Shown here piece by piece: positions 4,666 to 28,892 of a stretch of DNA of 32,000 nt (its first letter is position 1; each line of letters starts with the position of its first letter). Under the pieces are notes generated by a model that saw only the letters and a program-made list of their open reading frames with translations, did not search any database and was not told where the DNA came from. The DNA lies in assembly GCF_000014265.1 (NCBI RefSeq), contig NC_008312.1, positions 4,800,001-4,832,000 on the forward strand, in the 5' to 3' direction. The position numbers and the translations under genes were made by a program. The stretch comes from Trichodesmium erythraeum IMS101 (lineage in GTDB: Bacteria > Cyanobacteriota > Cyanobacteriia > Cyanobacteriales > Microcoleaceae).

Positions 4666-4737
4666 AGTTGGTTATTTTGCGGTAATTGATTTGATTTTAC
4701 TCTTTACTGGTCTTTAAAAATATCGATCTCTAGATCG

Positions 4738-6717
4738 TTAGTCGCGTTTAATCAACTGACTTGCAATCCATCCCTGTCTCTGATACTGTGGACTATAAAT
4801 TTTGTACCAAAGATAATTATCTGAGTTATACCTCTCGTCGAGGACTCTAACAGGACTCCCAATAGTTAATTCAAAAAGAACCTCTGTCTCAGTAGAGCTT
4901 CCAGAGCGAACATTCTTGGTCTCCCAAGAAGTGCCTGTAACAGTTGCATTTGTCAGTTTTTTATTTATTTTTTTGCAAGCTGCAAAAGCGTCTGGAAATT
5001 TTTCTAAGTCAAGGTAAATAGAACATTTTTTGTCCCAAACATGGGTTATACTATATTCTCCAAATTCCCCATTACCTTCTATCGCCTTCTCAAAAGCATC
5101 TAAAGCCTTATCTCGCCATCCTCTGTCCTGGTAAATCACTCCTATTTTATACCAGACTTCTGAATCGTCTGATTTAAATTGAACAGCTCTCCAGTAGGAA
5201 TTTAATGCTTGACGTTTACCCTTTAACTTCGACAAAGCATTCCCTCGCTCCTTCCAAGCTCGATAATCATAATCAACCAGCTCGACTCTTTGATTGCAGG
5301 CATAATAAGTTTCTTGAGTGTCTTCTCCCTGTTCAGCTAAAAGATAGCATTTTTTCTGCCAAACATCCGCTATACTGAATTCTCCAAATTCTCCATTACC
5401 CTTTATAGCTTTGTTAAAAGCATTTAAAGCTTCATTTATCTCTCCTTTGTTTTCCCAAATCAAACCTATCTTGTACCAAACTTCTGAATCATCTGATTGA
5501 ATTTCTACAACTTTTTGATAGGATTCTAATGCTTCTTCTTTTTGATCCAATTTCCATAAAGCATCTCCCTTTTCTTTCCATAGAAAGTGATTATAGCGAT
5601 TAAAACTAATAGCTGCTTTACAGACAGAAATAGTTGTTTCTGGCTCAGAGTTTTTTACAAGATTGAGTATCAAACAAGCTCGTATCGGAGCATCCGCTGA
5701 TTCAGGTAGAAGTTCAAAAACTTCAAGGTATTTTTCTAGCGCACTTTCATAATTCCCTATTTCTTCTAGGCTATTAGCTTCTTCAAGTAAAATTTTAGCT
5801 TTTTTTTCTTTTAACTGAGGAATCAGAATATTAGTGACAGCAAAAAATCCTCCTATTCCCATTGTAACTATTAAACCTGTGATTATTTTAGGTTTAATAT
5901 TAGACCTCTCCAAAAACACCAATTTACGAACGGTAGCATAAAGGCTTGAGAACCTTTTCTGGAGAGGCCTGTTTTCAGGAGCATCAACTGATGGTAATGA
6001 CGATAAGGGTAACGGAGTTAATTCAGGGATTTCACTTCTGGATACCAAGTCTGGTAAAGGATATTTTTCAACTGTATTAAGTCGTTCTTCTCTGCTGATA
6101 ATAAATTGACGGTAAAGAGCATTTGCCCTTGTTAGTAATTTATGATCGGTAAAAATGTAAAGCAAGCGATTTGTGTACCAATACACATTGTCTCCATAAG
6201 GAGCGAGAACAAAATTTCCTTCTCTAATGGGTAATACAAGCCCGCACTTAAAAATTAGATAGTATATTTTTCCGGAAAATGGCAGGATGATTAATGCCAA
6301 AACCAGAGCAAAAATTATCCCTGCAATCGAACTAAGAGTGTAAGTTATTGCTGCTATTACAGCTCCTATATGAATATACAAAGCTAATTTACTCGGTTTG
6401 TAAACAAAACCACTATTTATGTGCTCTAAATAACCATCTTCATAATTCAGTTCCCCAAAATAACCTACACTAATATGTGCTATCCGACGCTCAGTCACAC
6501 AAGCAAATTGACGATTTCCCAAACAAAAAAAACCTTGAATACCTAAATATCTCGCATCATAAATCTCCTCATCTTCAGGAATAAATTGTTGAAACATGGT
6601 TTTAATAGCATCAAAATCACCTTCACAACCTAGCTTAAGCAGACTTTTCTGAAGTTTAATATCGCCCTTTTTAGGCTCTATTTGAGTGGAATAAATATTA
6701 GAAAATGGATTGCTCAT
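4738..6717 (-). CDS. membrane protein: conserved N-terminal domain + TM hairpin + third TM + TPR repeats + C-terminal SH3b-like domain
   Basis: 659 aa. Hydrophobic stretches are LALYIHIGAVIAAITYTLSSIAGIIFALVLALIILPF and IITGLIVTMGIGGFFAVTNILI. TPR-like repeats include an internal ~100-aa duplication (SDDSEVWYKIG...AF.KAI.GNGEFGE.SI..VW.KKC, twice). The C-terminus VRSGSSTETEVLFELTIGSPVRVLDE...YLWYKIYS..YQRQGWIASQLI looks like bacterial SH3. The N-terminal ~200 aa are paralogous to the next gene. Confidence 0.8.
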   Translation of the reverse strand: MSNPFSNIYSTQIEPKKGDIKLQKSLLKLGCEGDFDAIKTMFQQFIPEDEEIYDARYLGIQGFFCLGNRQFACVTERRIAHISVGYFGELNYEDGYLEHINSGFVYKPSKLALYIHIGAVIAAITYTLSSIAGIIFALVLALIILPFSGKIYYLIFKCGLVLPIREGNFVLAPYGDNVYWYTNRLLYIFTDHKLLTRANALYRQFIISREERLNTVEKYPLPDLVSRSEIPELTPLPLSSLPSVDAPENRPLQKRFSSLYATVRKLVFLERSNIKPKIITGLIVTMGIGGFFAVTNILIPQLKEKKAKILLEEANSLEEIGNYESALEKYLEVFELLPESADAPIRACLILNLVKNSEPETTISVCKAAISFNRYNHFLWKEKGDALWKLDQKEEALESYQKVVEIQSDDSEVWYKIGLIWENKGEINEALNAFNKAIKGNGEFGEFSIADVWQKKCYLLAEQGEDTQETYYACNQRVELVDYDYRAWKERGNALSKLKGKRQALNSYWRAVQFKSDDSEVWYKIGVIYQDRGWRDKALDAFEKAIEGNGEFGEYSITHVWDKKCSIYLDLEKFPDAFAACKKINKKLTNATVTGTSWETKNVRSGSSTETEVLFELTIGSPVRVLDERYNSDNYLWYKIYSPQYQRQGWIASQLIKRD

Positions 6718-11034: not shown

Positions 11035-11301
11035 GTATTTTTAACTCCTGTTAGTGTGTTTAGTCGATAAAAGCACTGCTGTCCTCTCCTTTACTTGGCG
11101 TACTAGCAGTTTGACTAGCTTTACCCTTAAATTTTATTCTAACTTTTGGGGCAGGGGGCGTCAACTTCAACTTCAAGCATTCATTTTTCCAATGAGTTAA
11201 CCGGTTTTTGGGCCATGTAGAGAAACCCGGTTTTTCCAAATGTTTACCTATCATCAACCCCATCATTTATTTGAGATAAAATTTTCTCCATCTCAATAAT
11301 A

Positions 11302-11550
11302 GTGATAAAAATTTCATCTATCAATAAGTATCTCAAACAATTAGAGAAATCTGTAAGCCTTGCACAGATCAATGCAAGCATCAAAATTGTTAAAGTTGCT
11401 CTACTTCCTAAGCACCCATATCTGGCCACGCAACTGAATAACCAGGCTTTCTTATATTATTCTCAAAGGAAATACGAACCAGTGGAAGTATTGCTCAAAC
11501 AAGCACTGGATATTTTTGAGCAAATATATAGGTGGGGAACATCCTCCTAA
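11302..11550 (+). pseudogene. fragment of a TPR (TPR_12 / kinesin-light-chain-like) repeat protein
   Basis: HPYLATQLNNQAFLYYSQRKYEPVEVLLKQALDIFEQI resembles the HP-x-(V/T)A-x-SLNNLA-x-LY-x-xQG-x-YxxAExLxxxAL-x-I consensus. It is truncated, has no plausible N-terminus and is followed by stops. Confidence 0.5.
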
Positions 11551-11944
11551 GATTATGTGCAAAAACTGTGAAGCTTGTCACCAACAACAACAAAGCTAGA
11601 CATAAATTAGGTCACAGATAAGCTTTTGATATTATGTCTCTTTCCTAGAAATATGCAAAAATCTCATAAAATCTATAATAAAGACCGGATTTAACTTTTG
11701 TGAGGCACACTTACGCAGATAATATTTAAGTAATACAGTGTTTTTATGGTTTATCTTGTACCTCATTTATCTGAAATATGCTGTATCTGATTTTTGATCT
11801 AGGTGGGTTGAGGTAGGAAACCTCATAAAAATTAAGGGGGTGTTGGGTTTCACCGTGTTTCTACCCAAACTACTCCTATCCCACATTCCGCACTTCTTAA
11901 GATGAAACTGATAATTTTATCAGGACTTACGCAAAGACACTATA

Positions 11945-12215
11945 TATAGCGCATAGTCAGTAAAGCGATGGCTATAATTTTTAGAGAGCGATCGCTTACT
12001 ATTGGTGGTGTAATCCCTTTCACCCGCGCAATTCCTCTAATACCCATACCGTTAACGTACATTCTCAAGCACAGCCTTTTAAGATCATCGCCGTATTCTC
12101 GTGGTTGAGAAGGTTCGATGAACTGACTGCTACAAGGGACACCAATATAATTCTGCTTGCCTCATTGATGGCCATTTTTGCGGATATGCTAGCAGCCACA
12201 GCCAGGATATTGCAT
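11945..12215 (-). pseudogene. IS1-like transposase N-terminal fragment (zinc ribbon + HTH), disrupted
   Basis: The minus-strand frame reads MQYPGCGC*HIRKNGHQ*GKQNYIGVPCSSQFIEPSQPREYGDDLKRLCLRMYVNGMGIRGIARVKGITPPIV, with two in-frame stops and no DDE part. Confidence 0.5.
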
Positions 12216-12522
12216 AGGTTGAACTCTCACAGGTGTTAATGACGTCAACTATTATAAACCAACAAGCTATTTAAAAAAAATAGATTCATCCCGCTATCTA
12301 CCAACGCCCAAAAAAGACCTTGCTCTACCTGAAGCAGTTGATTATCTTGATAGAACGGATAGAGTTATAATTTACGGGCAAGCATTTTATCTGTTCTTTT
12401 GAAAGAGCATCAATATCCCCTAGTTATACATACTTATTTTTGATACATGGAATGTGCTTCAACATAAACTTCTGAAATAGCTGTATCCCGACAATAAGTT
12501 TATCTATCAAGGTTATTTTTTT

Positions 12523-12890
12523 ATGGGCGCTCGTTTCAGGATTTTTCTCACTAGTGAGCAAGACCAAAAACTACTGAAGCTTAAAACTGAGGATGTACCA
12601 CAGAAAGTCAAACACCGAGCAGAAGTAATTAGGCTCAATGTCTATGGTTGGTATGTCGAAAAAATAGCAGCTCACTTCAACTGGAGTTCACAAACAGTCA
12701 CAACAGTATTGCATAAATGGCAAAAACTTAGCTAAGAAAGACTTTTGGACTCACCAGGGCGAGAGGAAAAACTAAAGTGGTCTGAAGAAGATATGGTCTT
12801 TCTAGAACAATGCCTAACAAAAGAGCAACGTACATATAACTCTGGCCAATTAGGGAAAAAATTAGCTAGCGATCGCCAAACAAAATAAAA
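12523..12890 (+). pseudogene. IS630-family transposase N-terminal (HTH) fragment
   Basis: LTSEQDQKLLKLKT..VPQKVKHRAEVIRLNVYGWYVEKIAAHFNWSSQTV, then a stop, then PGRGEKLKWSEEDMVFLEQCLTKEQRTYNSGQLGKKLA. This is the typical IS630 ORF N-terminus. The DDE domain is absent. Confidence 0.55.
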
Positions 12891-12962
12891 ACTTAGCCCC
12901 GAATTTTCTACTTTACAGGACTAAAAAATTAAGATAAGAAATTTTCATTATGTTTAAGTAAA

Positions 12963-13033
12963 AGCGGGTGGGGGGAATCGAACCCCCATCATTAGCTTGG
13001 AAGGCTAAGGTTTTACCACTAAACTACACCCGC
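12963..13033 (-). tRNA. tRNA-Gly (anticodon UCC)
   Basis: The reverse complement folds as a cloverleaf: acceptor gcgggtg/cacccgc, D arm gttt-agtggta-aaac, anticodon arm ttagc-cTTCCaa-gctaa, T arm ggggg-ttcgatt-ccccc, discriminator U. No encoded CCA. Confidence 0.9.
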
Positions 13034-13105: not shown

Positions 13106-16100
13106 TCAATTTTCACTTATGGGACTTCTACTCACCAGAAAGCCCAAAATATCTTCATCTATGCCTTTTAGCTTTAAAAATCCATACTTCTTCACCATCC
13201 GACTATCTAAATACTGGGCCACTGTTGCTGATACCAAAATTGTATTTGGCTCTGCGGCCTCTTCTAAACGAGCTGCAATATTTACTGATGGGCCAATCGC
13301 TGTATAATCAGAACGCTTTGGACCACCAAACATCCCTACTACAGCATTCCCCTGATGAATTCCACAACGAAACCTCACAGGAGGCACCCCATTACTTCCA
13401 ATCAATTGCAGATTTTGCCAGCGCTCATTCAACTTATCTAAAGCTTTCAACATTGCCTGAGCCGAAGCTACTGCCCGTCGCGCCTGCTCCTGTGGAGTCA
13501 ACTCTTCAGGTGAACCATAAATTGCCATCACAGCATCTCCCACAAACTTATCTACAGTACCACCATTAGCAAAAATAGCTCTTGTCATTTCTGCCAAATA
13601 TTCATTCAATAAGTCTGCAATACGAGACGACTGCAAAATATTCGACATCCGAGTAAAACCGACAATATCACTAAATAAAACAGTTACCAACCTTGTTTCT
13701 GGTGTAAAATCCAAAACCAACTCTCCTGCTGCTGCCCGTTGCACCATTTCCGATGGTAAAAACCGCTGTAAAACTGACTCCGTCAAATAATAATTCAACT
13801 CCTGCATATGTCGCTCATTCTCTTTCAAAACCAATAAATTTCTAACTTCTGCTAACAATTCTCTATCATTAAACGGTTTTGACAAATAAGCATCTGCTCC
13901 TCTTTCTACCCCTTCAATTCTAGTATCTTCATCTGCTTTAGCAGTTAACAAAATAATAGGCGTACCTCGCAATTGTTTTTCTTCTCTAATCATCTTAATT
14001 AAATCCAAACCAGACACAACTGGCATCATCAAATCAGTTATAATTACATGAGGATGATGAATTTCTGCAAACTCAAATCCCTCAGCTCCATCCCTAGCTA
14101 ACACTACATTAAAGTTAGACTTTCGCAGAATTCTTGAGACATAGTTTCTCAAATCTGGATTATCATCTACAACCAAAATAGTAGTTACTGCCATATCATC
14201 ATAATTAACTGTAGCAATACTTTCTTGTTGGTCTACAGTTTGTAAATCCTCTACTTCTTGTAACTCTGCTTCTACATCCGCCAACTCAACAGCCAACTTA
14301 GTAGCATCAAATTCAGCTGGTGTTTCTAATACTTGGGCTACAGGTAAATGACTCTTTCCTGTTCGCATCCAAACTTTAAAAGTAGTACCTTGACCATAAA
14401 CTGACTCTACACTTATTTGAGCACCGTGAAGTTCCACTAATTCTTTGACTAAAGCTAAACCCAAACCACTTCCTTCGTAAGAACGATTTGCTGAACCTTC
14501 TGCCTGCCGAAATCTTTGAAACAAAAAGGGAATTTGTTCTTGACGAATTCCAATACCAGTGTCTTCTACCTTCAACAGACAATATTCCTGACTAGATTCA
14601 ATTGAGATCCTAATACTACCTCCAGCAGGAGTAAATTTCATAGCATTTGAGAGCAAATTATAGATAACTTTATCAAATTTTTCTACATCTAAATAAACTA
14701 GTAAACAAGTATCACTAAAGTCTGTAACTAAACTTAGTTCTTTTTTCTGGCAGTAGGGGGTAAATGATTCAACAATATTACGACACAGATCCACAAGACT
14801 ACAAGGGCGAAAAGAAGGCTGCATTCGTCCCGCATCAAGTCTTTGTAAATCTAGTAATTGATTAACTAATCTTAAGAGACGACGAGAATTACGCAGAGCG
14901 ATCGCAGAAGATTCTAAAGGTAAATCTTGTTGATAGTTGACTGCTTCCTCTAATAATCCAATCATCAGAGTCAGAGGAGTACGAAACTCATGGGATATAT
15001 TCTGGAAAAATTCTGTTTTGAGGCGATCTGCTTCCAGTAGTCTTTCTGCTTGTTTTCTAGTAGTTTGATAAAGACGGGATTGTTGAACAGCGATCGCCGC
15101 TTGGGAAGCTAGTGCTTCAGCCAGTTCAATTTCTGAAGCCTGCCATTGGCGCTCATAAGAATTATTGCGTAGAGAAATACTACCAATAATTTCACCATCA
15201 ACAATGAGAGGTACCACCATCAAAGCACGAGAATTAGATCGTAACGGGAGATCAGATTTATCAAGTTTTTGATGTTTATTCAGATCGCTAATTGCCACCG
15301 TTTTTTTTGTTTTTAGCAATTCTCCTAAAACAGGATTACTACTAATAGGAACCACTGACTGAGGTAAGTTCATTGAAATCAAGAAGTTTTCATCATTAGA
15401 AACTTGTGTTTCCATCACAGATTGATCTGAAAGAGCTTCGACTTCAGTGGTACTTACAGAAGATTTAGCTTGAGCATCATATAACCCCACAGTCTGAACA
15501 TATTCATCTGCTTCTGTCCACAAAGAAAGAGCACAACCATCTACTTCCAAGGCTTGGCCTAACTCTTGAGTGATAGCAGTAAAAATCTCTTGAGGGTTAA
15601 GACTAGAGCGAATAGCAGTTGTGATCGTATTCACCAGAGTTTCTCGTTGAGCTAGACTTCTCAGTTGTTCATAAGCACGAGCTTGAGATAGAGCTAGAGC
15701 AGCTTGATCAGTAACTGTAATTAACAATTGAACTTCATAGTCTAACCAATTACGGTATTCTCCACACTGGTGTAGTGCTAAAACTGCAATTAATTCTGAT
15801 CGGGAAAATAGAGGCACAATTAAACTAGAATAGACATTTGCTTCTAGATAAGCTTGTTGGCGTTTTTGAGCTTCTACAGTTTCTCCTTTGAGCTTTTCGT
15901 GATTTTTTGTATCTGAAATTATTTCTACAGTATCTGTTTTCCAGATTAATGAAGCCAAAATTTCTTGTGGTATTTTAGGAAGATTATTATTGGTTGATTG
16001 TTTAGAGTTATGTTCTTGATCCTGATAAATAGCAAACCATTCATCTTCTCCATGGTTATCTTGGAAAGGACAGCAGATCGCCAAGTTCACTTCCAACATT

Positions 16101-16624
16101 TGACCAATACTTTCCACTATCCTCTGAAGCATCTCCCGATAATTTGGGGCAGAGCGAATAGTATTAGTAACTGCGTATAGAAGAGATTCTTGCTGAAGAG
16201 CACGACGTAGTTCCTCAGTATGGGATTTTAGGACATTGTGGGTGTCAACTCCCTGCTTTACTAATGCTTTAAGCTCATGATCATCCCAAGGTTTAGTTAC
16301 ATATTTAAAGACCTTACCAGAGTTTATTGCTTCTACTAAGTCTTCTACATCTGTATACCCAGTCAAAATAATCCTAATAGTATTAGGATATTTTTCAGCA
16401 GTAAGACTTAAAAATTCTGTACCACTCATTTTGGGCATTCGTTGGTCTGAAATAATTACAGCTACTTCCCCAGATTTTTCCAGAACTTCGAGGGCTTCTG
16501 AACCACCTTCGGCTCGTAGCACCTTGTAGTTTTGGAAAAAGGTGCGGTACAGAAGATCTAAATTATATGGTTCGTCATCGACAACCAAAATTTTCGTTTT
16601 AGGTTTTTCTTGTCTGAAACTCAT
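13106..16624 (-). CDS. cyaC: multidomain signalling adenylate cyclase: REC - GAF - GAF - HisKA/HATPase_c - REC - class III cyclase
   Basis: N-terminal receiver (ILVVDDEP...IISDQRMPKMSG...KP). Two GAF-like regions. H-box ISHEFRTPLT. N/G boxes LSNAMKFTP, DTGIGI and GSGLGLALV. Second receiver (ILVVDDNPD...IITDLMMPVVSG...SKP). Cyclase core VTVLFSDIVGFT...KFVGDAVMAIYG...GIHQGNAVVG..G.....YT.IGPSVNIAARLE. This domain order matches the published CyaC of Anabaena/Spirulina. Confidence 0.85.
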   Translation of the reverse strand: MSFRQEKPKTKILVVDDEPYNLDLLYRTFFQNYKVLRAEGGSEALEVLEKSGEVAVIISDQRMPKMSGTEFLSLTAEKYPNTIRIILTGYTDVEDLVEAINSGKVFKYVTKPWDDHELKALVKQGVDTHNVLKSHTEELRRALQQESLLYAVTNTIRSAPNYREMLQRIVESIGQMLEVNLAICCPFQDNHGEDEWFAIYQDQEHNSKQSTNNNLPKIPQEILASLIWKTDTVEIISDTKNHEKLKGETVEAQKRQQAYLEANVYSSLIVPLFSRSELIAVLALHQCGEYRNWLDYEVQLLITVTDQAALALSQARAYEQLRSLAQRETLVNTITTAIRSSLNPQEIFTAITQELGQALEVDGCALSLWTEADEYVQTVGLYDAQAKSSVSTTEVEALSDQSVMETQVSNDENFLISMNLPQSVVPISSNPVLGELLKTKKTVAISDLNKHQKLDKSDLPLRSNSRALMVVPLIVDGEIIGSISLRNNSYERQWQASEIELAEALASQAAIAVQQSRLYQTTRKQAERLLEADRLKTEFFQNISHEFRTPLTLMIGLLEEAVNYQQDLPLESSAIALRNSRRLLRLVNQLLDLQRLDAGRMQPSFRPCSLVDLCRNIVESFTPYCQKKELSLVTDFSDTCLLVYLDVEKFDKVIYNLLSNAMKFTPAGGSIRISIESSQEYCLLKVEDTGIGIRQEQIPFLFQRFRQAEGSANRSYEGSGLGLALVKELVELHGAQISVESVYGQGTTFKVWMRTGKSHLPVAQVLETPAEFDATKLAVELADVEAELQEVEDLQTVDQQESIATVNYDDMAVTTILVVDDNPDLRNYVSRILRKSNFNVVLARDGAEGFEFAEIHHPHVIITDLMMPVVSGLDLIKMIREEKQLRGTPIILLTAKADEDTRIEGVERGADAYLSKPFNDRELLAEVRNLLVLKENERHMQELNYYLTESVLQRFLPSEMVQRAAAGELVLDFTPETRLVTVLFSDIVGFTRMSNILQSSRIADLLNEYLAEMTRAIFANGGTVDKFVGDAVMAIYGSPEELTPQEQARRAVASAQAMLKALDKLNERWQNLQLIGSNGVPPVRFRCGIHQGNAVVGMFGGPKRSDYTAIGPSVNIAARLEEAAEPNTILVSATVAQYLDSRMVKKYGFLKLKGIDEDILGFLVSRSPISEN

Positions 16625-17380
16625 GCACCGCTCTCCGTGCTTTCAGGTCAGTTATAATAAATTATTATTTCGCAGGTACAGTATAGATATAACTCCATTC
16701 CGCTTCCCTACTGATTGATAGATGGCCAATCATATCTATTTAATCAACCAAGAAGCCTTATTTCTTCACTTTGGTATTTGTTTAAGTGAAAAAGGCTACT
16801 TCCATAGTAATATTGCGGTTCAAAATTAAATAAGATACAATAAAAGCTTGAATTAACAAGCTTTTCAGCTTTAAATATGTACCTCATTCTTCAGAGAAAT
16901 GCTATAGTTGTGATTAAAGGTTCACTCCATTAAATTTGTAATATTTATAAATGAGTGTTTGTTTGTAAGATTCAATTCTTGAACATTTTATAATAGTTTT
17001 TTATTCAGAACAAAAACTGTTTCTTTTTAGAACAAAATCAACTAAATTTGATATATTTTATCATTTTTTAACCTTTCTCCACACATTACTTTTTTCCCAT
17101 ATAGTAAATTTTATTTGGCCTTTTTTTATCAATTACCCCCTTGCTATCCCTTTAATTTAGTATACTCAAGCCTGTGAAAAAATTTATTAGAATCATCTAT
17201 TAATTGTAACCAGTTTTCATATTTTCATACAAAAATTACGATTTATCTTTAAATCTATTTAAAACTTTAATCTGAATTTAAGCAGAATACCTGTGTTCTT
17301 AGGTAAGTTTTCTACCCGATGCCAAGGTGAAAGATAACACAATATAAGAGAACTATTATAACAATACCAAGGGATTATTA

Positions 17381-17599
17381 TCATGAATGAAGAATTTCAT
17401 CAATGTATTCCTTGAATTTTTCAACACTAACACCAAATCTACTGAGTATGAGAAGGTATTTTTTTTCACTTTCAGCCATTACTAAATCAGGGGTTTGGCG
17501 ATAAAAAAATCCGGCTTTTATACCATAATTTCGTATTATACTATCTCTTGAAAATAATACTACCAACTGAAGGTATTCAACTAGGACTGGATAAATCAC
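17381..17599 (-). CDS. hypothetical 72-aa ORF (GTG start), possibly a gene remnant
   Basis: The only ORF in a 2.1-kb AT-rich spacer. It has no SD sequence and no motif. Confidence 0.2.
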   Translation of the reverse strand: MIYPVLVEYLQLVVLFSRDSIIRNYGIKAGFFYRQTPDLVMAESEKKYLLILSRFGVSVEKFKEYIDEILHS

Positions 17600-18377
17600 A
17601 GAAATTAGTTAACAATGAAATTACCTCAATAAATAGTATTTAGAAATATAAAACTTTAATATACTTAATTTTTTTGACAATTGCTCTTAGAATATAACAG
17701 TTAAGTAGTTGTTCCAAATTAATTACACATCTATACAAGCTAAATTATTCACCTTATTGTGTTTTAAAATAATTAGGCTTAGCTAAAAAAACTGAAAGAA
17801 TTTACTTAAATATTACTAAATATTTTTTTTTAATGTAAAATAATTTGGTATTAGTTAGTTCAAAATGAATAATTTTGAGTGATTAAGGGTAGAAAAATTG
17901 AAAATAGCAATTCTGACTACATCTTCTCTAATCCCCATATATTCATTACTCTGTGCCTCAATCCAATCCTGTCTGCCTGCCTCTTACCCTCCCCATAAAT
18001 ATATTCAGCAAGTCCTAACTAATTAGAATAAGTAAATAAGAATATAACGCCACTTATACACATAATAAATTCCATGAAAAAACACTTTTTTTTCTAATAA
18101 ACTTTGGTAAATTTATCATAAAAATTGTTAGAAAATATTATCTTGGTTTCTGTACTAATTTAGTTAAATAATTTACTAAAATGTTGTTGTAGTTACAGCC
18201 AATAGTATACCTATATGCTCAGATACACTATTAATTTATATAAATTCACAATTGTTCTTTTCTAGGGCATTAAAATTGTTTATTCAATAAAAGCTAAAAT
18301 TTCATTTGCAAATAGTCATATTGATATATAAATACTTATAGCAATACACTATTACTCCATATTAAGTAGGTAGATGT

Positions 18378-18407
18378 GAAAAAACTAGCTATATTAAGAT
18401 TTATATA
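18378..18407. repeat. copy 2 of the dispersed ~30-bp repeat
   Basis: gaaaaaactagctatattaagatttatata aligns with 1177-1208 and 18608-18640. Confidence 0.4.
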
Positions 18408-18607
18408 TTAACTTCAAGCTCTTCTACAGATTTGATTTGAGTTTAATTTACATTTTATTACATAGCAACCAATTTCAACACCGACTTACTTAGACGAAAA
18501 ACACATGATGATGTATATTAGTAAACTATATCTTAAATAAGATAAATCTTCGTATTTTTCAAAGTGAGATTATACACCAATAAATATAGAAGAGTCCATC
18601 GAATCAG

Positions 18608-18640
18608 TAAAAAAGTTTGGCTATTCAAGATTTGTATATA
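18608..18640. repeat. copy 3 of the dispersed ~30-bp repeat
   Basis: taaaaaagtttggctattcaagatttgtatata aligns with 1177-1208 and 18378-18407. Confidence 0.4.
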
Positions 18641-18735
18641 AGCATTTTTTCAATCTATGTCTCTCAAAATGAATAGCTCGTGGTAGTTAATTATAGACAT
18701 TTTTAATTTATATAGATATAGTTTTTAAGTATATT

Positions 18736-22412: not shown

Positions 22413-23230
22413 ATTATTGAATAGTGAATGATTAGTTTAATCTTAGAAGTAAATTTACCTTTGATCAAGTTTTTTATAAATTTAGCTTTGACATTCTCGC
22501 TAAAATGCTAAAATTCAGATCATATACAAGATAAATTAAACCTTTAGAAGAGCTACTTTTTCTATTATTTAGGAGCTTTTTAATACTTTTTTTATCTGCC
22601 ATTATTGCCAAGATAAACCAGCTTTATAAATACCATAAACGATATATTTAGCATCTTAAATAATAGCAATTCTTCAAAGATAAACTGTTCTATCTTCTGA
22701 GAATTTATTGGGGTTTATCAAAGTTTTGGTTTCTGGGTATAGAGTAGGTAAAGTCTATAAAAGAATTTGATTTTGTCAACCATCATTTTTGTAATAGAAG
22801 TAGCGATCGCCTTATTTAAAAGGAATACTATATTTTTCATATTCCCAAATTTAAGTTAGTCATTTTTTTATAGTTTTAACTTAGGAATTTTCTGCCAGAC
22901 AATTAAAAATAGTTTTATTTTTAGACTTAACCCAACCTTGATTTTTTTTCTGATTTAGGGTCTTCTAATCATTGATAAGGATAGAAAATTTGAATGCCAT
23001 AACAATTTTCTACTGATCCTGCTTTATCAGTAGCAATATATGCTAAAAATTATTTTTATTATTTTATATTTTTGATTTGTTAATCAGTAATTTAACCTCA
23101 GAAACAAATTTCACCTTTATCAAGTTTTTGTTGCAGTTTTGCTTCTATACTATTGTTAAACTTCAGGTCAAATACTAGATCAGCTAAATCTCTATAGGGA
23201 TCATTTTTTCTATTATTTATCAGCTTTTTT
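21927..23230. repeat. tandem duplication, two units of ~650 bp (21927-22581 and 22582-23230)
   Basis: Each unit holds the first ~162 codons of the oligopeptidase gene, a ~30-bp spacer and the last ~44 codons of the 600-aa gene. Anchors: gccattcttgcc at 21944 versus gccattattgcc at 22598; gtagcgatcgcc in both units (from 22147 and 22801); ATG complement cat 22410-22412 versus tat 23065-23067; ttctattatttaggagcttttt at 22560 versus ttctattatttatcagcttttt at 23208. Confidence 0.8.
22582..23067 (-). pseudogene. decayed duplicate of the 5' ~160 codons of the prolyl oligopeptidase gene
   Basis: Alignable base for base with 21927-22412 at roughly three-quarters identity by eye. It has many indels and stops, and the start codon is mutated (ATG to ATA). 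No ORF is left. Confidence 0.8.
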
Positions 23231-24900
23231 CTTTTGTCAGCCCTAATACGCAAACCTTTGAAAGCAATTTCTAACTCAGCTTCACTTGCTGTATTGATAT
23301 TAATAGTAGTTGATACCTTTGAATCTAATGATGAAGTTGGTTTTGTTTCAATACCTTTATTTCTAGTTGAACTTGTTAAATTTGGTAATTTAGTTGATAC
23401 TTTATCAATAACTTTATCTGCTTGAATAAATTCTATATTTTTCAAATCTAGCTTTCTTTTCAGAAGTTCTGAACATGAAGGAGCAATAATAAAAGCTAAG
23501 TCTGGAGGAACATCTTCTGAAGGGTATGGCCTAAAGTCTAAATCATCTAACCAGGAACTAAAATCATCCAAGTGGCCAAGAATCAATTTATAATTTTTCG
23601 CTTCACCAAAAGCTCTAGCTATTATTCTATCATTATGCAGCAATTCTACATAACAATCTAAAGCGTGTTTTTGTCTAGTTTTTTTGCCTTGAAGTACTTT
23701 TGTAGTTTCAACTGCTGATAGTGTATATGCTTTCTTAATTAAATATTTTTCCCATCTTTTTTGACATTCTGCTTTGACTAATTCACGAGCATCACCTTCA
23801 AATTTTTGCTCTTCTGCTTCGGAAAAATACTTTTCATGTATTTCTAGAACTTTTCCTGAATAATAGTTACAAAATTCTCGGAAATGTTTATCAAATTTCA
23901 AGGGTATATTTTGAATTTCTTGCCAGGCTTTATGAAATTTTTTATATCCTTTATATGCTCCTTTTAACCTTTCATCAATCTCTTGTTTAATCATCATAAA
24001 TTCTTTCTTAGAACCTTTACTAAGATTAATTACAGACTCTTTTACCAAGCTTTTTAATACAAAGTCTCCTTCAATTAAAGAACTTACATTAACTGATGTA
24101 CCTACCAAATAAATTAGTAGAGGAATATTTCCTCCAAATTTCTGAACAGTATGCTTTAGTAATGCTCTAAAAATAACTCTAGTTTCTTCTAGATCTTGAG
24201 GAAATTTTGCTAATGAATCTAATTCATCTATTAGATATACAAAAGTAAAGCTAGGGTCTACTCTTGTGACTTGGGATATCACATCAAAAAATAACTCTAC
24301 CAAATTTACTTCAATTTGGTTGAAAAGTTTATTAAATTTTGAGAGGAAAGGATTTAATTTTACCTCCTTTTTAATTCCTGTATTTAATAACGACTCTGCA
24401 TCATATTCTGCAAGGATATTTTTAGCAACTTCTTTTACAGATGGTAATAGCTTTTGATTATGTATTAACGTCCAAAAAGTATACCCTAAAACATAATGGT
24501 AAAATTTAACGCTAAAATTATGATTACTACGAACTGTCCGCAAACTATAAAGTGGAAACTTAACTACTACAGAATGGTTTTCATAATTTGCCTGAGTTTG
24601 TATTAACTTATGCAAATAATTTAATAGGGAAGTTTTACCACTGCCAAGAGGTGCCGCCACGAATCTAAATGTAAAATATCTATCATCAAAAGTATGTTCA
24701 AGATCGTCTTGAAGTAGTTCTGTTATATTTGATATTGAGGACTTGCGAGATATACTTTGAGCTGTAATATAACCTTCACCGTCTTTCCCTGGTAATCTTA
24801 CATCACGTTCAATCCAAATATCTTCTACATAACCTTCTCCTGGTTTAATTTCGTTTAAAAAATTTCTAATATATCTTTTTTTTCCTGCATCTTCCGGCAT
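23098..24900 (-). CDS. P-loop NTPase fused to a PD-(D/E)xK-like nuclease motif region and a C-terminal ComEA-like helix-hairpin-helix domain
   Basis: Walker A FRFVAAPLGSGKTSLLNYL (aa 79-97, nt ~24631-24645). Walker B FVYLIDELDSL (aa 220-230). LLIYLVGTS is sensor-like. Candidate nuclease motif ALD(415)CYVELL-x12-FGE(433)AK(435)NYK. HhH motif ININTASEAELEIAFKGLRIRADKRKKLINNRKNDPYRDLADLV (aa 533-575). SD-like GGTGGA lies upstream. The start is 3 nt after the stop of the upstream gene. Confidence 0.8.
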   Translation of the reverse strand: MPEDAGKKRYIRNFLNEIKPGEGYVEDIWIERDVRLPGKDGEGYITAQSISRKSSISNITELLQDDLEHTFDDRYFTFRFVAAPLGSGKTSLLNYLHKLIQTQANYENHSVVVKFPLYSLRTVRSNHNFSVKFYHYVLGYTFWTLIHNQKLLPSVKEVAKNILAEYDAESLLNTGIKKEVKLNPFLSKFNKLFNQIEVNLVELFFDVISQVTRVDPSFTFVYLIDELDSLAKFPQDLEETRVIFRALLKHTVQKFGGNIPLLIYLVGTSVNVSSLIEGDFVLKSLVKESVINLSKGSKKEFMMIKQEIDERLKGAYKGYKKFHKAWQEIQNIPLKFDKHFREFCNYYSGKVLEIHEKYFSEAEEQKFEGDARELVKAECQKRWEKYLIKKAYTLSAVETTKVLQGKKTRQKHALDCYVELLHNDRIIARAFGEAKNYKLILGHLDDFSSWLDDLDFRPYPSEDVPPDLAFIIAPSCSELLKRKLDLKNIEFIQADKVIDKVSTKLPNLTSSTRNKGIETKPTSSLDSKVSTTININTASEAELEIAFKGLRIRADKRKKLINNRKNDPYRDLADLVFDLKFNNSIEAKLQQKLDKGEICF

Positions 24901-24903
24901 AAT

Positions 24904-25479
24904 TTATTCCACCCATTGAATTAATTCTTTATTGTTTTCTTGTACTGCAAATACTAGACCATTAGACTTCAATTTGTCAAAATATTTTTCTAGTAGCAAT
25001 TCAGAAATATGATTATTTTGCCTAAACTTATAGCACATTTCTTGACTACAAATAGCCACAACACCTTCCAATTCTTGACGCTTTCTTTCTTCAAGGTAAA
25101 GCTCTTTAAACTTATCTACAAAAGTCTCAAAATCCATATCTTCATTTTGAGAACTTGTCTGATTATATTTTGTTGCTAACTTTAAACAAGCTATCAAAGC
25201 ATTTAAAATTTTAGCTCCTTTGTTAGACCTGAACTTATATTCTGTTGTTTGAAGACTAATAACCAGAGCCTTCATCCCAATCTCAGTAATTTGAATTCTG
25301 CCTCGTTTAGGAGATTCCAATAACTTCAACTCACATAAAGTCTCAGCCACTGATTTTGCCCATACGCGGTCTTTTTCAGATAAATTGTTCCTTACTGTAC
25401 TCTTAGTTACCGTTCCCTCTATTGAGTAAGCAAAAGTGTAAAGCAAATAAAGCATTTGTTCAGTCGAAATTTCTCTCAT
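24904..25479 (-). CDS. hypothetical protein with an N-terminal winged-helix-like region, partner of the 600-aa NTPase
   Basis: 191 aa. AETLCELKLLESPKRGRIQITEIGMKAL resembles a MarR/PadR-type recognition helix plus wing. AAGAGGA SD lies 7 nt upstream of the ATG. Translationally coupled to the downstream gene. Confidence 0.7.
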   Translation of the reverse strand: MREISTEQMLYLLYTFAYSIEGTVTKSTVRNNLSEKDRVWAKSVAETLCELKLLESPKRGRIQITEIGMKALVISLQTTEYKFRSNKGAKILNALIACLKLATKYNQTSSQNEDMDFETFVDKFKELYLEERKRQELEGVVAICSQEMCYKFRQNNHISELLLEKYFDKLKSNGLVFAVQENNKELIQWVE

Positions 25480-25636
25480 TAGTTCCTCTTATTAATTTTA
25501 TTAATGAATATATTTAAGACTTCCAATAATCCTGAAGTATAAATTTATAGAATAGTCATTTTACTAGATAAAACGAAATAGATTTGTAACTGTGACATAG
25601 ACTATCTCCACAGCTTATAAACTGAGAATAAATATA

Positions 25637-25658
25637 AAATTAAATTTAAATTTAATTT
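25637..25658. promoter_or_regulatory. perfect 22-bp palindrome aaattaaatttaaatttaattt, candidate operator
   Basis: The sequence is its own reverse complement. It lies ~160-180 bp upstream of the 191-aa gene start (25479), in the only spacer that can hold the promoter of the two-gene operon. Confidence 0.3.
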
Positions 25659-26056
25659 AATACGAATAATTCTGATAATTTTTTTTTAATCAGATCAATT
25701 CTCATTTAACCATAAGGTAATTTAGTTGACTCAAAATCCCTAATTTAAAAGTAATTATTACAGTTATTTTTATTTATATCAACATAAATATGTTTCAAAT
25801 ACAGACAATAATTACTTTAGCATTTTTTTGTTAGTATTAAGTTATATTGAATAAAAAAAATCTCTTTTACTACTATAAAGATGCAAAACAATATTAGGAA
25901 ATTGACAAAATTAAAATACTTTAAAAACAATAATTTTGAATTGATCTGATAACGTATTTATCTACAATTAGCTATTATATAGCTAATAGCTTAAATCTAA
26001 GCTATAAACATTGAATTATGACCTAAGTCAAGCCGATGATAACTACAGAATAATAT

Positions 26057-26836
26057 TCATTTCATATCTCCACGAAATACAGTTGATTTTTTACTAAAAG
26101 ATTCTCCAATTAGTTTGTAAACTTCTCTTAAATCTTCAGTTGTAAATGACTTAATTAACTTTTCGGCTGCCTTCTTAGGATTCTTAGCAACTACTATCCA
26201 TAATTCTTTATTTAATTGACCTTCTGGTTGTTGTTCCAACCAATTTTTTACTGCAGTTTTTCCTGATTCAGTAATTTGATAAAAACCTCTTCCGCCACTT
26301 TTTGATTGTTCCAACCATCCCAAATGTTCCCATCGTTTTCTCCATAGTTGAGCAGTACTATGAGCATAATCTAATATTTCTCCTATTTTAGATGCGTTTA
26401 AAACTTGATTTTCTGGACAAGCTTCCACAAGTTTAGAAAACTTATGAAAATAATTTGATGGATTTCCTAAATCTTTAAGTGGATCTTCTAAAATGTCAAC
26501 TTTTTTGATTTCAGTTGATTCTAGTTCAGTAATTAATTCCTCAATTTCTTTTGGTTCACAACCTAATCCATATGGCGGTTGAGCATGACATAATTCTTCA
26601 TAATTATTAAATGGCTTTCCTTCCTCATCAAGTAATTGCTGATAAGCTGCTGGTTGTTTTATTAATTCACGCCATGCTTTTAATTGTTCTGCATTAGCAA
26701 CGATACTTTTTTTGAGAACAGATTGTAATTTTAACTTAATTGCAAGTGCCCATTGTGGTGTTCCAGGAGTTGTGGTAATTCCTCCTGTTTTCCCTAAAGT
26801 TTCATAATCCATTTTTCCCTGCATAGCAAAGGACAT
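26057..26836 (-). CDS. hypothetical protein with a C-terminal winged-helix-like DNA-binding region
   Basis: 259 aa. STAQLWRKRWEHLGWLEQSKSGGRGFYQITESGKTAVKNWL resembles a wHTH (helix, then a G-rich wing, then TE.G). No SD is obvious, and the start could be at an internal Met (M5 or M9). Confidence 0.6.
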   Translation of the reverse strand: MSFAMQGKMDYETLGKTGGITTTPGTPQWALAIKLKLQSVLKKSIVANAEQLKAWRELIKQPAAYQQLLDEEGKPFNNYEELCHAQPPYGLGCEPKEIEELITELESTEIKKVDILEDPLKDLGNPSNYFHKFSKLVEACPENQVLNASKIGEILDYAHSTAQLWRKRWEHLGWLEQSKSGGRGFYQITESGKTAVKNWLEQQPEGQLNKELWIVVAKNPKKAAEKLIKSFTTEDLREVYKLIGESFSKKSTVFRGDMK

Positions 26837-26926
26837 TTTATTCTAGGTTATCTAAGATAATTTTTGAGTTTCCAAGGATTTTATTTTTTGCTAGCTCATA
26901 CTTTAATAGGTATATTTTTAGCTATT

Positions 26927-26969
26927 AATTTTTTCCTATATTTCCTAATTTTTTCCTAGAATATGAGCT
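26927..26969. promoter_or_regulatory. phased direct repeats flanked by an 8-bp inverted repeat, upstream of the 259-aa gene
   Basis: aattttttccta occurs at 26927-26938 and 26947-26958 (20-bp period), with a third tttcct at 26941-26946. The repeats are flanked by agctcata (26893-26900) and tatgagct (26962-26969). Confidence 0.3.
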
Positions 26970-27148
26970 GAAACAAAATTTTTACTAGCAAGTATTTTAC
27001 CTAACAATAGAATTTGTTGGCTTCTTTATACTAACTATTTGTATATTTTCTATTTTAACTAAAGCTTCAAGAAGCTTAATACTATAGCCTATGAGAATTG
27101 CATAAGATAAATCTAACGTCAATTAGTGGGGCATTGAATCCTATTAAT

Positions 27149-27316
27149 TTATAAATATTGCTTTTTGCATTCTTGGCAAAAGTTGATGTTATCATAACTG
27201 TAATCAAGCAAATATTTCCCAAAATGCACTCTTATTACTTCCCTAGGGTATTGTATTCTTAAAGCTCGTGGAGTCCGACAGGATAAGGAAGCTATCTGAG
27301 CAGAAGTCCACACCAT
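27149..27316 (-). CDS. possible small HTH (excisionase/AlpA-like) protein, 55 aa
   Basis: MVWTSAQIASLSCRTPRALRIQYPREVIRVHFGKYLLDYSYDNINFCQECKKQYL. The WTSAQIASL..RTPRALR....IRVHFGKY pattern resembles the HTH_17 layout. No SD sequence. Below the ORF-track cutoff. Confidence 0.25.
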   Translation of the reverse strand: MVWTSAQIASLSCRTPRALRIQYPREVIRVHFGKYLLDYSYDNINFCQECKKQYL

Positions 27317-27851
27317 AAGTGTAAAGTTTGTTCGGTGTGGATTTAAAATTCATGATTAACAAAGTTAAATACTGGTCTGTCAAGATTGATTTTATCCCCC
27401 TTATCTACTTTTTCTCCTTGTCTTCTCCATTTAGTTTTAACCCATCATTTGAAAATTTACAAACCACTATCTGTATGTTAAAGAAAAAATTACAGGTTGA
27501 TAAAATTAGAAAAGCCAGTAAATTAGTACTTTGATAGTTGATTAGGCCCTAAATTAAAGATTGACAGACCAAAACTCCGGGGACAAATATATTATCTTTG
27601 CCACCAGAAAAGCTAATTAAAAAAAGGCAGATTCAATACTTGGCTTACCCATCTTGTCAATAAACTGAGAAAATTATTAATAAACAAGGTTTTATGGCGT
27701 TTGTTAATAATAGACTTTCCACTTCTAGTATTTCTAAAAGCTTGAAAAACACTATATATATGAATCAGTAAATCAAAGATGGGTTGGGCCTGATAGCCCT
27801 GGGAAGTGAGCTTTTCTTGATTAATACACTCCTATAATCATATCTACCTAC

Positions 27852-28892
27852 CTAAATTCTTTGTAAAATTAACTCTTTTCCTAACTTTATCGCTGCTTTC
27901 ATACTCGTAGCATCAGCAATACCTCGACCCGCTATATCAAATGCTGTACCATGATCAGGAGAAGTCCTAACAAATGGTAAACCAATAGTAGTATTAACAG
28001 CTAAATCAAATGCCATTAGTTTTATTGGAATTAAACCTTGATCATGATAAAGTGCCAAATAAGCATCGCAAGTCAATGCTTCTAAACCTCGCCAAGCAAG
28101 ACCCGGTTTAACCCAAATGGTATCCGGTGGCACAGGTCCATACAATTGTATATCTGGTTGGCGATCGCTTTCTTTCTCTAACCAAGGAATTAACCAATCT
28201 TCTTCTTCTGTTCCTAATTGTCCATTTTCTCCACTGTGAGGATTTAAACCGGCAACAGCAATTTTTGGTTTAGAAATACCAAAATCCTTTTGTAAACTTT
28301 CCACCAATAATTCTAATTTCCAACTCATTAACTCTGGTGTTAGAGCTGCTGGTACTTGACTTAATGGTATATGTGTGGTAGCTAAAAGAGAACGAAGTAC
28401 AAAATTACTGTGGGGTGAGTGGGCAACAAATAACATTCCAAAATTTTTTACTCCTGCAATTTCGGCTAAAAGTTCTGTTTGACCAGGATATTTATGACCA
28501 GCCATCTGCCAGCAGGTTTTGGAAATAGGAGCAGTGACAATACCTTGAAACTCTCCAGCTAAAGTTTGGGCGATCGCGGTTTCTATGTAACAAAAACTAG
28601 CTTCCCCACTCACAGCATTACCTTTCCCCAGAGAAATATCTTCTAAATTTCCATCAAACTCTACATCTAAAATTTTCAAATTTTCCCAATAGACAAGTTT
28701 TTCCAGAGATAGTTGTTGGTAAGTTTCTTGCAAAATTTGACGACTCCCAACTATTGTCAAATCACAATTTTCTCTCACCTTCGGATCTGCTAAAGCTTTC
28801 AGAACTATTTCTGGTCCTATACCTGTAGGATCTCCAATAGTTATTGCTAAACGAGGAATTGGACTTTTTATTTCACTCACGGCTGTCTTCAT
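27852..28892 (-). CDS. pdxA: 4-hydroxythreonine-4-phosphate dehydrogenase
   Basis: [23 protein letters not shown] and [19 protein letters not shown] are motifs typical of PdxA. Confidence 0.9.

Follow-up and report, generated by a model that had tools for sequence, protein, structure and literature searches.

Orc/Cdc6 AAA+ ATPases have been described as a mainstay of conflict systems (PMC10853773, NAR 2024). In the described cases a restriction-endonuclease (REase) domain lies between the ATPase and a C-terminal DNA-binding domain, the operons contain rapidly evolving partner proteins with 2-4 winged helix-turn-helix (wHTH) domains, and fusions to TIR domains occur; from comparative genomics, the combination of Orc/Cdc6 AAA+ ATPase, REase and multi-wHTH protein is predicted to act against invaders (PMC10853773). 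The ATPases of Tn7 and Mu also belong to the Orc/Cdc6 radiation, with NTPase+REase effectors derived from them (PMC10853773), and the clade also takes in BrxC and BrxD of BREX, whose partner BrxA is a multi-HTH protein (PMC12839542). The locus considered here is a pair of adjacent genes in Trichodesmium erythraeum IMS101, within a 32,000-nt stretch of contig NC_008312.1 (positions 4,800,001 to 4,832,000; hereafter the window, to which all coordinates refer). Gene A encodes a protein of 191 aa with two winged helices, and gene B a 600-aa fusion of an AAA+ ATPase, a PD-(D/E)xK-like nuclease domain and a helix-hairpin-helix (HhH) domain, as judged from the open reading frame (ORF), the AlphaFold2 model and Foldseek. 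We give about an even chance to the reading that A/B is a nucleic-acid-targeting conflict module (anti-phage or anti-plasmid), of the type that joins an ORC/Cdc6 AAA+ ATPase to a restriction-endonuclease fold. The analysis computed how the genes are coupled, which domains they encode, which motifs are invariant, how the family is distributed and fused, and how fast it evolves.

Both genes start with ATG on the reverse strand, A at 24904..25479 (-) and B at 23098..24900 (-). Their junction (24898..24913 (-)) reads ...CAATGGGTGGAATAA-ATT-ATGCCGGAA: the stop codon of A (TAA, 24906..24904) is followed by a 3-nt spacer (24903..24901) and the B ATG at 24900, and a Shine-Dalgarno (SD)-like run, GGTGGA (24913..24908), sits inside the last codons of A, 7 nt before the B ATG. 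This layout implies translational coupling of the two genes. An SD-like run of its own, AAGAGGA (25484..25490 (-)), lies 4 nt before the ATG of A. The 3-nt spacing is found in 44 of 53 loci, the junction ..CAATGGGTnGAnTAAnnnATGCC.. is kept across orders, and AAGAGGAAC upstream of A is kept in the Okeania-clade loci. When window positions 25480..25810 (-) are compared with the equivalent regions of loci L006-L010, L021 and L028, non-coding blocks 5' of A prove to be conserved in the Okeania/Trichodesmium clade (e.g. GTGGAG..ATAGTCTATGTCACAGTTATAAATCTATTTTGTTT and GGATTACTTTTAAATTAGGGATTTTGAGTCAACTAAATTA); these are possible promoter or operator elements. A scan for consensus promoters and terminators gave counts at or below shuffle expectation, and no promoter or terminator is claimed. 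The window has no tandem repeats, and no RNA families were found near the locus.

The AlphaFold2 model of B (27-sequence alignment, to which all statements on invariance in B refer; mean predicted local distance difference test score, pLDDT, 80.5) divides the protein into six parts. The N-terminal region (aa 1-75; 24676..24900 (-)), beginning MPEDAGKKR, has a mean majority fraction of 0.75, among the highest in the protein, and contains the invariant residues M1, E3, G6, K8, I28, R32, S49, S51, D65, D66 and F71. The AAA+ core (aa 76-295; 24016..24675 (-)) is recognized by its GSGKT and DELD motifs and by the order of strands and helices in the model. Its Walker A motif, G86-S-G-K89-T-S (aa 86-91; 24628..24645 (-)), lies in FRFVAAPLGSGKTSLLNYL, and its Walker B motif is YLIDELD (aa 222-228; 24217..24237 (-)), with G86/S87/G88/K89/T90 and D225/E226/D228 all invariant. 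Between strand 2 (110-116) and the Walker B strand (219-225) there is a helical insert (aa ~117-214), of which aa 121-210 form the most variable structured segment of B; this segment corresponds to the insert with which ORC/Cdc6 proteins contact DNA. T268 is a candidate for sensor 1. The module is completed by a helical lid (aa 296-360; 23821..24015 (-)) with helices at 298-316, 322-330 and 340-358, in which the invariant R311 and R341 may be the Arg-finger/sensor-2 residues.

Foldseek comparison of the B model with the PDB is led by ORC4 (7tjj_D, E 2e-5), human and fly ORC, and the Orc1/Cdc6 proteins of Aeropyrum and Sulfolobus (E 2e-5 to 1e-3). Among these ORC-type matches are two ATPases of defence systems, RdrA from RADAR and the N-terminal structure 9zll of BrxC from BREX, and lower in the list come Clp, TRIP13 and p97. 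The insert after strand 2 and the lid (298-358) are ORC/Cdc6-like traits; another such trait, a C-terminal winged helix after the lid, is absent from the model of B, and the modelled wHTH domains are in the separate protein A. Going by the predicted structure, the ATPase is an ORC/Cdc6-type AAA+ of the BrxC/BrxD (formerly DUF2791) kind. At the level of profiles, B gives weak Pfam matches to AAA_16, KAP and AAA_22 and no match to PF10923 (BrxC_BrxD) at E up to 1. PF10923 does match 3 of the 27 family members (E down to 3e-4); the protein P0216, from a clade of 33% identity, scores 23.1 bits against a cutoff of 22.2. Weak NACHT matches (E 0.003 or worse) occur in 7 of the 27. Neither the B sequence nor the family profile retrieved anything from the PDB (the best matches, barnase and StARD4 at E > 0.6, are noise), and B has no above-threshold match in Pfam, NCBIfam or PHROGs; in PADLOC-DB v2.0.0 there is a chance-level match to mad8 (E 0.01, 13.3 bits).

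The nuclease-like domain (aa 361-495; 23416..23820 (-)) was recognized from model topology and an invariant motif. Its elements run H363-382, E398-404, E411-422, E425-434, H437-453, E468-473, H478-486 and E490-493 (H, helix; E, strand). The motif HALDCYVELL...FGEAKNYK supplies D415 (codon at 23656..23658 (-)) and E433-A-K435 (codons at 23596..23604 (-)), a classical D-x17-ExK arrangement. Invariant residues are E361, E364 and E368 in the preceding helix, H412, D415, E419, N423, the run G432/E433/A434/K435/N436/Y437, and H443. The second core strand has D415 close to its start, and the third has E433-x-K435 at its end; from its register, the 411-422/425-434 hairpin would set D415 opposite G432/E433. 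Taken with the alpha-beta-beta-beta-alpha-beta fold, this is predicted to be the canonical PD-(D/E)xK layout, and since the triad is both intact and invariant, the nuclease is predicted to be active. The sole nuclease among the listed Foldseek matches of B is the NucS endonuclease 2vld (rank 50, E 8e-3, 130 columns). The ERCC4 signature GDxnERKx3D is absent from B, which has H-A-x-D...G-E-A-K-N-Y, and there is no ERCC4 match in Pfam. A 6-residue insertion, KKTRQK or KKTGKK, occupies aa 406-411 (23668..23685 (-)) in the loop just before the D415 strand; within the alignment it is limited to Okeania, Trichodesmium and Dapis (the window protein, P0004, P0010, P0013 and P0050).

A disordered, hypervariable linker (aa 496-532; 23305..23415 (-)), with pLDDT <50 for aa 496-530 and free in length and sequence, leads to the C-terminal domain, which is of the ComEA/GspK-like HhH type (aa 533-600 plus stop; 23098..23304 (-)). 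It starts ININTASEAELE...DLADLV and is modelled as four helices (aa 540-594, pLDDT 87-91). In the window protein its profile matches are sub-threshold, namely T2SSK (E 0.0024, 18.6 bits vs 24.2), HHH_3 (E 0.099, 13.2 bits vs 27) and GspK of NCBIfam (2.4e-4). Across the family, T2SSK matches 10 of the 27 members, HHH_3 matches 5 (best E 3.1e-5) and HHH_6 one, and some sources label B homologues ‘ComE-like DNA-binding protein’.

Protein A (AlphaFold2 model from a 30-sequence alignment, mean pLDDT 88.6) has an H-H-H-beta-beta unit at each end, one winged helix at aa 1-78 and another at ~117-191, with long helices between. All of its Foldseek matches are weak and all are to wHTH proteins: SarS, MarR-family proteins, Sso10a, MukE and JetB (best E 1.9e-3). 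FokI (2fok_B) appears only at rank 49 with a probability of 0.20, the matches being generic, and Foldseek detects no relation of the A model to DndG, SspB or the FokI domains. A has no above-threshold match in Pfam, NCBIfam, PADLOC or PHROGs.

The initial annotation of this stretch, made from the letters and translated reading frames, had recognized most of these elements. The 191-aa frame does stop 3 nt before the 600-aa frame, both with SD-like runs, and the Walker A and B motifs, D415/E433/K435 and the HhH-like segment are all at the residues it gave. They are beyond chance, given full-length homologues in many cyanobacteria and residues invariant in 27 sequences. Its wHTH-like small protein turns out to have two winged-helix domains, its comparison of the P-loop with the ORC/DUF2791 type was correct (Foldseek to ORC/Cdc6, with weak PF10923 agreement in the family), and the HhH assignment is upheld across the family by T2SSK and HHH_3. 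As to the proposed PD-(D/E)xK site, the residues are invariant on adjacent strands and the topology fits the model; recognition by similarity did not go as far, with NucS only at rank 50 and no Pfam nuclease.

Homologues of B number 248, all cyanobacterial, and homologues of A 78, the closest having 98% identity and coming from a Trichodesmium metagenome-assembled genome (MAG). Full-length homologues of both proteins share ~45-95% identity, those of B being at ~48-95%. Hosts of B include Okeania, Trichodesmium, Dapis, Nostoc, Planktothrix, Tychonema, Microcoleus, Stigonema, Gloeotrichia and Lyngbya, several homologues being on chromosome-sized contigs, and A and B are adjacent in ~60 cyanobacterial genomes. 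When one genome per species was scanned (185,579 species), 70 loci came up, all cyanobacterial bar one contig of an ‘Eubacteriales’ MAG, which is taken to be mis-binned; the scan adds Chroococcidiopsidaceae, Acaryochloris, Chamaesiphon, Halomicronema, Synechococcales MAGs and the divergent 33%-identity clade, from Laspinema/Oscillatoria. A hidden Markov model search of 1.84 billion representative proteins gave 80 matches at E up to 1e-3, mostly fragments of the B family. The distribution is patchy, most cyanobacteria lacking the genes (among them, apparently, Anabaena PCC 7120 and Synechocystis), and A/B is an accessory family.

The pairing seen in the window holds throughout: A is directly upstream of B in every locus where both are intact, in Nostocales, Oscillatoriales, Chroococcidiopsidaceae, Acaryochloris, Chamaesiphon and Synechococcales MAGs. 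The trees of A and B are congruent and follow taxonomy in broad outline, and the Nostocales have two A/B lineages, both of them present in Nostoc mirabile. The pair is flanked in Planktothrix by PriA and CobN on one side and a glycosyltransferase on the other, in Nostoc by ParE/Phd and alcohol dehydrogenase on one side and a radical-SAM gene and PHO4 on the other, and in Okeania/Trichodesmium by a 259-aa HTH protein and prolyl oligopeptidase. Since the flanks are unrelated between genera, the unit of conservation is the A/B pair, which is an autonomous two-gene cassette.

The window locus is syntenic in at least 10 Okeania/Trichodesmium/Dapis genomes, and among these the pair evolves much faster than its surroundings. 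Identity is 83-89% for the 259-aa gene and 83-87% for prolyl oligopeptidase, as against 61-82% for A and 49-77% for B; the AAA+ core of B falls to 41-46%, as distant as Trichodesmium is from Nostoc. Decay is recurrent, with at least 7 independent decayed copies (L049, L061, L063, L068-L071) in Nostoc, Tolypothrix, Brasilonema, Dapis and one uncultured-cyanobacterium MAG. In these copies (~3500-5700 per locus) deletions with varied breakpoints fuse the N-terminal part of A to the C-terminal part of B, or frameshifts split B. In a protein from a Trichodesmium MAG (P0196), the N-terminus of A is fused to prolyl oligopeptidase and B is deleted.

Some members of the family exchange or extend the C-terminal part of B. 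In five 50%-identity cluster representatives, of ~725 aa, the HhH is followed by a TIR_2 domain at the C-terminus (E 4.6e-22 to 8.6e-16), and in one representative of 816 aa (P0199) a WD40 propeller replaces the HhH. An A homologue (36-45% identity) is directly upstream in all of the TIR and WD40 variant loci that were fetched. Two of the four TIR-variant loci are immune-like. One (L078, 1..18202) contains ThsB_TIR, a 685-aa TIR_2+LD_cluster2 protein, two unusual TIR_2+GUN4 fusions (351 and 353 aa), an integrase, Dam and an AAA_15 ATPase. In the other (L086, 1..10762) a ThsB_TIR gene begins 3 nt after the B stop codon, followed by SNF2 helicase, ParB_N and ParA; ThsB_TIR and a 156-aa gene are apparently co-operonic there with A and B-TIR.

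Distant relatives of B occur in Methanocella. They are ~570-590 aa long, with homology to B that spans aa 6-486 (hhalign probability 97.7%, E 1.6e-12), and have D415 and E433; their C-terminus differs, having no HhH, and PF10923 is precomputed for them. A gene of 208-218 aa precedes the B relative with a gap of 4-5 nt (L075, 58..2405; L077, 7340..9761), so that the two-gene layout crosses domains. Homology between A and the small upstream protein of Methanocella is not detectable by hhalign (probability 0.4%).

A role in defence is favoured on account of the swapping of TIR and WD40 domains, the loci with ThsB-like TIR genes, the fast evolution relative to the flanks, the patchiness and decay, and the published domain logic. 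The mechanism, including its need for ATP, the cutting of DNA, the part played by A and the resulting defence, is our inference; in it, translational coupling would yield A and B in fixed proportion. The two winged helices of A would supply DNA recognition or scanning, by analogy with BrxA, SspB and DndG, and B, with its C-terminal HhH and the variable helical insert in its AAA+ module, would hold DNA non-specifically. ATP binding would then drive an ORC/Cdc6-style assembly on DNA, and assembly would license the PD-(D/E)xK domain (E364/E368, D415, E433, K435) to cut. In the paralogues the same switch would operate with a TIR domain, as an NAD-consuming or signalling effector, after the HhH, or with a WD40 sensor in place of the HhH. 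The host's own DNA might be spared through recognition of modified DNA, free ends or replication intermediates.

Several observations weigh against a defence role. The neighbours in the window are housekeeping genes (prolyl oligopeptidase, PdxA, an NmrA-like protein, NAD kinase, GNAT), and a scan of 113 neighbour ORFs from 29 loci found no dominant defence family, the genes being mostly housekeeping. The same scan found scattered methyltransferases, Uma2 and ABC-type ATPases, and matches to mad2, mad3, mad8 and PDC-S03 that are not assigned to loci. The loci of P0213, P0199 and P0215 have housekeeping and toxin-antitoxin (TA) contexts, and the HhH-only form, to which the window protein belongs, shows a weak defence-island signal. 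The pair appears to be inherited for the most part vertically, with synteny at genus level. The core keeps ~50% identity across orders and the first 15 residues of B are unusually conserved, which is unusual for arms-race proteins. A tblastn search with B of 72,556 plasmids and 50,697 phage genomes found nothing, nor were there relatives among the PHROGs. The nuclease fold comes from a predicted model and one low-ranked Foldseek match, no Pfam nuclease family matches the 27 members of the B family, and in the Methanocella relatives K435 is replaced by T. There is also no PADLOC match beyond that to mad8, and no methyltransferase or other obvious self-protection partner. The defence reading of the initial annotation is therefore sustained by the TIR and WD40 fusions, the TIR-rich loci, the fast evolution and the patchy decay, and is not sustained by genomic context, most loci not being defence islands.

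The chromosomal location, largely vertical inheritance, housekeeping surroundings and lack of mobile-element copies would suit a lineage-specific nuclease of DNA repair or recombination. B would then be a structure-specific endonuclease, Hef/XPF/Mus81- or NucS/EndoMS-like, loaded by its AAA+ module onto stalled forks, flaps or junctions, with A as a targeting or regulatory subunit, and would help mostly filamentous cyanobacteria to maintain their polyploid chromosomes. The order ATPase, nuclease, HhH in B mirrors that of archaeal Hef/XPF, NucS is the sole nuclease in the listed Foldseek matches, and the catalytic core and N-terminus are strongly conserved. We nevertheless judge this reading unlikely: it does not fit the TIR and WD40 fusions or the ThsB-TIR neighbours, the genes are absent from most cyanobacteria, decay repeatedly and evolve much faster than their flanks, there is no ERCC4-type motif, and XPF, Mus81 and Hef are absent from the top 50 Foldseek matches. 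The TIR fusions of some paralogues and the invariant nuclease triad also speak against a replication or chromosome-organization factor. In that reading B would act at specific chromosomal sites as an initiator or loader in the manner of ORC/Cdc6, assisted by the winged-helix protein, one conceivable setting being the DnaA-independent replication of cyanobacteria. The best structural matches (ORC4 and archaeal Orc1/Cdc6), the wHTH partner with its weak Foldseek matches to the kite proteins MukE and JetB, and the chromosomal genes with their stable synteny all agree with such a role; it is highly improbable all the same, as a patchy distribution and frequent loss do not suit a core function, the canonical C-terminal wHTH of ORC is missing, and the pair outpaces its flanks. 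A further, very unlikely reading without immunity is a cyanobacteria-specific chromosomal DNA-transaction machine, made of an ORC/Cdc6-type, initiator-like ATPase with nuclease and HhH and guided by the double-winged-helix partner. Such a machine would nick or process specific chromosomal structures, e.g. in recombination-dependent, DnaA-independent start or restart of replication in polyploid cyanobacteria.

Gene order and neighbours lend themselves to a different explanation, a TA-like or abortive addiction module in which B would be a toxic ATP-dependent nuclease and A its antitoxin and autorepressor, the module persisting selfishly or being fired by stress, and not through direct recognition of invader DNA. 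A small DNA-binding gene does lie right upstream of a larger enzyme gene, with translational coupling, the conserved non-coding blocks 5' of A could be operators, and TA modules (ParE/Phd, YoeB/Phd, HepT/MNT, RES/Xre, DUF433/DUF5615) are frequent near A/B. On the other side, a protein of 191 aa with two wHTH domains would be a large antitoxin, the remnants often lose the C-terminus of A together with the N-terminus of B rather than the toxin first, and the profile libraries show no homology to known TA families. We consider this distinctly improbable, although it overlaps with the conflict-module reading, since abortive systems also count as defence. A last alternative is a domesticated, now immobile remnant of a Tn7/Mu-type transposition module, with B as a TnsC-like AAA+ regulator fused to a TnsA-like REase nuclease. 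Such an origin would agree with the abundance of Tn7-like elements in cyanobacteria. It would also agree with the inclusion of the ATPases of Tn7 and Mu in the Orc/Cdc6 radiation and with the NTPase+REase effectors derived from them (PMC10853773). It is hardly credible, however, with no DDE transposase, TniQ or terminal repeats beside A/B in any locus examined, no tandem repeats in the window, a stable genomic position, and TnsC, TnsA and MuB not among the top Foldseek matches.

As to the origin of the pair, the initial annotation had placed it in a very AT-rich, HIP1-free islet and suggested horizontal acquisition or plasmid/phage-derived cargo. The GC content of B is 0.301 (0.170 at third codon positions, GC3) and that of A 0.325, compared with 0.332 (GC3 0.186) for prolyl oligopeptidase and 0.327 (GC3 0.150) for the 259-aa gene upstream. 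With 11 HIP1 sites in the 32-kb window, the 5.4-kb gap around A/B (22803 to 28161) is ordinary. An acquired AT-rich islet is rejected, as the composition of A/B is like that of its neighbours and the locus is syntenic in relatives. Plasmid or phage cargo is likewise rejected, there being no plasmid or phage match in the tblastn search; Foldseek of B against viral structures found only generic AAA+, KAP and NLR-like ATPases.

The 259-aa HTH protein (26057..26836 (-)), encoded 577 bp upstream of A, has weak matches to HTH_23, IS630-N and Mrr_N, and in Pfam, NCBIfam, PADLOC and PHROGs its matches are sub-threshold only. Its synteny with A/B is limited to Okeania/Trichodesmium/Dapis, and it is intact in Dapis M126, where A-B has decayed. 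As a third component of the module it is rejected, given this clade-limited synteny, its flank-like conservation, its survival of A-B decay and the lack of profile similarity to A; it appears to be independent of the A/B module. Between the wing of its wHTH (aa 167-224) and the N-terminus of the small upstream protein of Methanocella there is a likeness (pairwise BLASTP E 1e-5, 23/61 identical) that is probably generic to wHTH domains.

Elsewhere in the window, 16625..18735 is a ~2.1-kb region with a GC content of around 0.25 and no ORF of at least 90 aa, and there are further long AT-rich gaps at 11035..12962 and 22413..23097. Trichodesmium genomes have a large non-coding fraction, and these gaps are consistent with it. 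A 1172-aa signalling protein is encoded at 13106..16624 (-), in the order GAF, HisKA, HATPase, two receiver domains and adenylate/guanylate cyclase; a tRNA-Gly(UCC) gene (12963..13033 (-)) adjoins it.

If the conflict-module reading is right, A/B would be a compact two-gene immune module that targets DNA without a methyltransferase and is specific to cyanobacteria, its distant relatives being in Methanocella; in it an ORC/Cdc6-type ATP switch is coupled directly to a restriction-fold nuclease that is predicted to be active. It would offer an experimentally tractable minimal model of how BrxC/BrxD-like ATPases, whose mechanism within BREX is still unclear, read DNA and license effectors, and the HhH-only, HhH+TIR and WD40 versions would form a natural series for comparing the swapping of effectors and sensors on one scaffold. 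The defences of bloom-forming and N2-fixing cyanobacteria such as Trichodesmium, Planktothrix and Nostoc, which bear on phage ecology and on genetic tractability, are poorly charted, and A/B would extend what is known of them.

Among described systems, those with Orc/Cdc6 and REase domains (PMC10853773) share with B, as modelled, the order AAA+, REase-fold and DNA-binding domain, a separate, rapidly evolving partner gene whose predicted product has more than one wHTH domain, and TIR fusions in some members. They differ in that the triad of B is intact and invariant, where those authors describe an ‘inactive REase’, and in that the C-terminus of B is HhH and not wHTH. The A/B loci also lack HerA/FtsK, a second REase, ASCH-REase, KAP and a second Orc/Cdc6 (in the window and among the 25 commonest neighbour families), and are restricted to cyanobacteria with largely vertical inheritance. 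The K to T change in Methanocella would fit the ‘inactive REase’, and the C-terminus there looks winged-helix-like by eye. Hef, XPF-Mus81 and NucS/EndoMS have the same order of ATPase or motor, REase-fold nuclease and HhH, and NucS is in the Foldseek list; however, the motor of B is AAA+ and not an SF2 helicase, its motif is D-x17-ExK and not ERCC4, there is no counterpart of the TIR and WD40 forms, and B has no sequence match or high-ranked structural match to repair nucleases of these types.

With RADAR RdrA and STAND/Avs proteins, B shares an ATPase switch coupled to an effector, the structural match to RdrA, and WD40 and TIR paralogues. The window protein has no repeat sensor and no RdrB deaminase, is closest to ORC/Cdc6 and not to NACHT/NB-ARC, and is much smaller than Avs proteins. 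The likeness to Thoeris concerns the TIR paralogues only, through TIR_2 fused to B paralogues and ThsB_TIR genes in two loci; the window B is without TIR, and no ThsA/SIR2-SLOG partner was seen. With BrxC/BrxD and BrxA of BREX there is agreement in the ORC/Cdc6-type AAA+ clade, the Foldseek match to 9zll, the marginal PF10923 matches in family members and the small multi-HTH partner. Yet BrxC has ~1200 aa to the 600 of B, the nuclease and HhH are found in B only, and PglZ, the BrxX methyltransferase and BrxB are not nearby (in the window; PglZ is also not in the 25 commonest neighbour families). A/B is not BREX, because PglZ and the methyltransferase are absent, nor is it RADAR, Thoeris, Avs/STAND or any PADLOC system. 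No paper naming the family was found in the literature, and the absence of a named system from the initial annotation agrees with PADLOC, Pfam, NCBIfam and PHROGs, which gave nothing above threshold. The novelty it saw in the domain combination stands as far as a named system goes and no further, since Orc/Cdc6 AAA+ with REase, multi-wHTH partners and TIR fusions is a published theme (PMC10853773). A/B is thus a previously unnamed module with a domain logic that has precedent in published predictions, and by analogy it looks like a stripped-down pair of BrxA and BrxC/D with a built-in nuclease.

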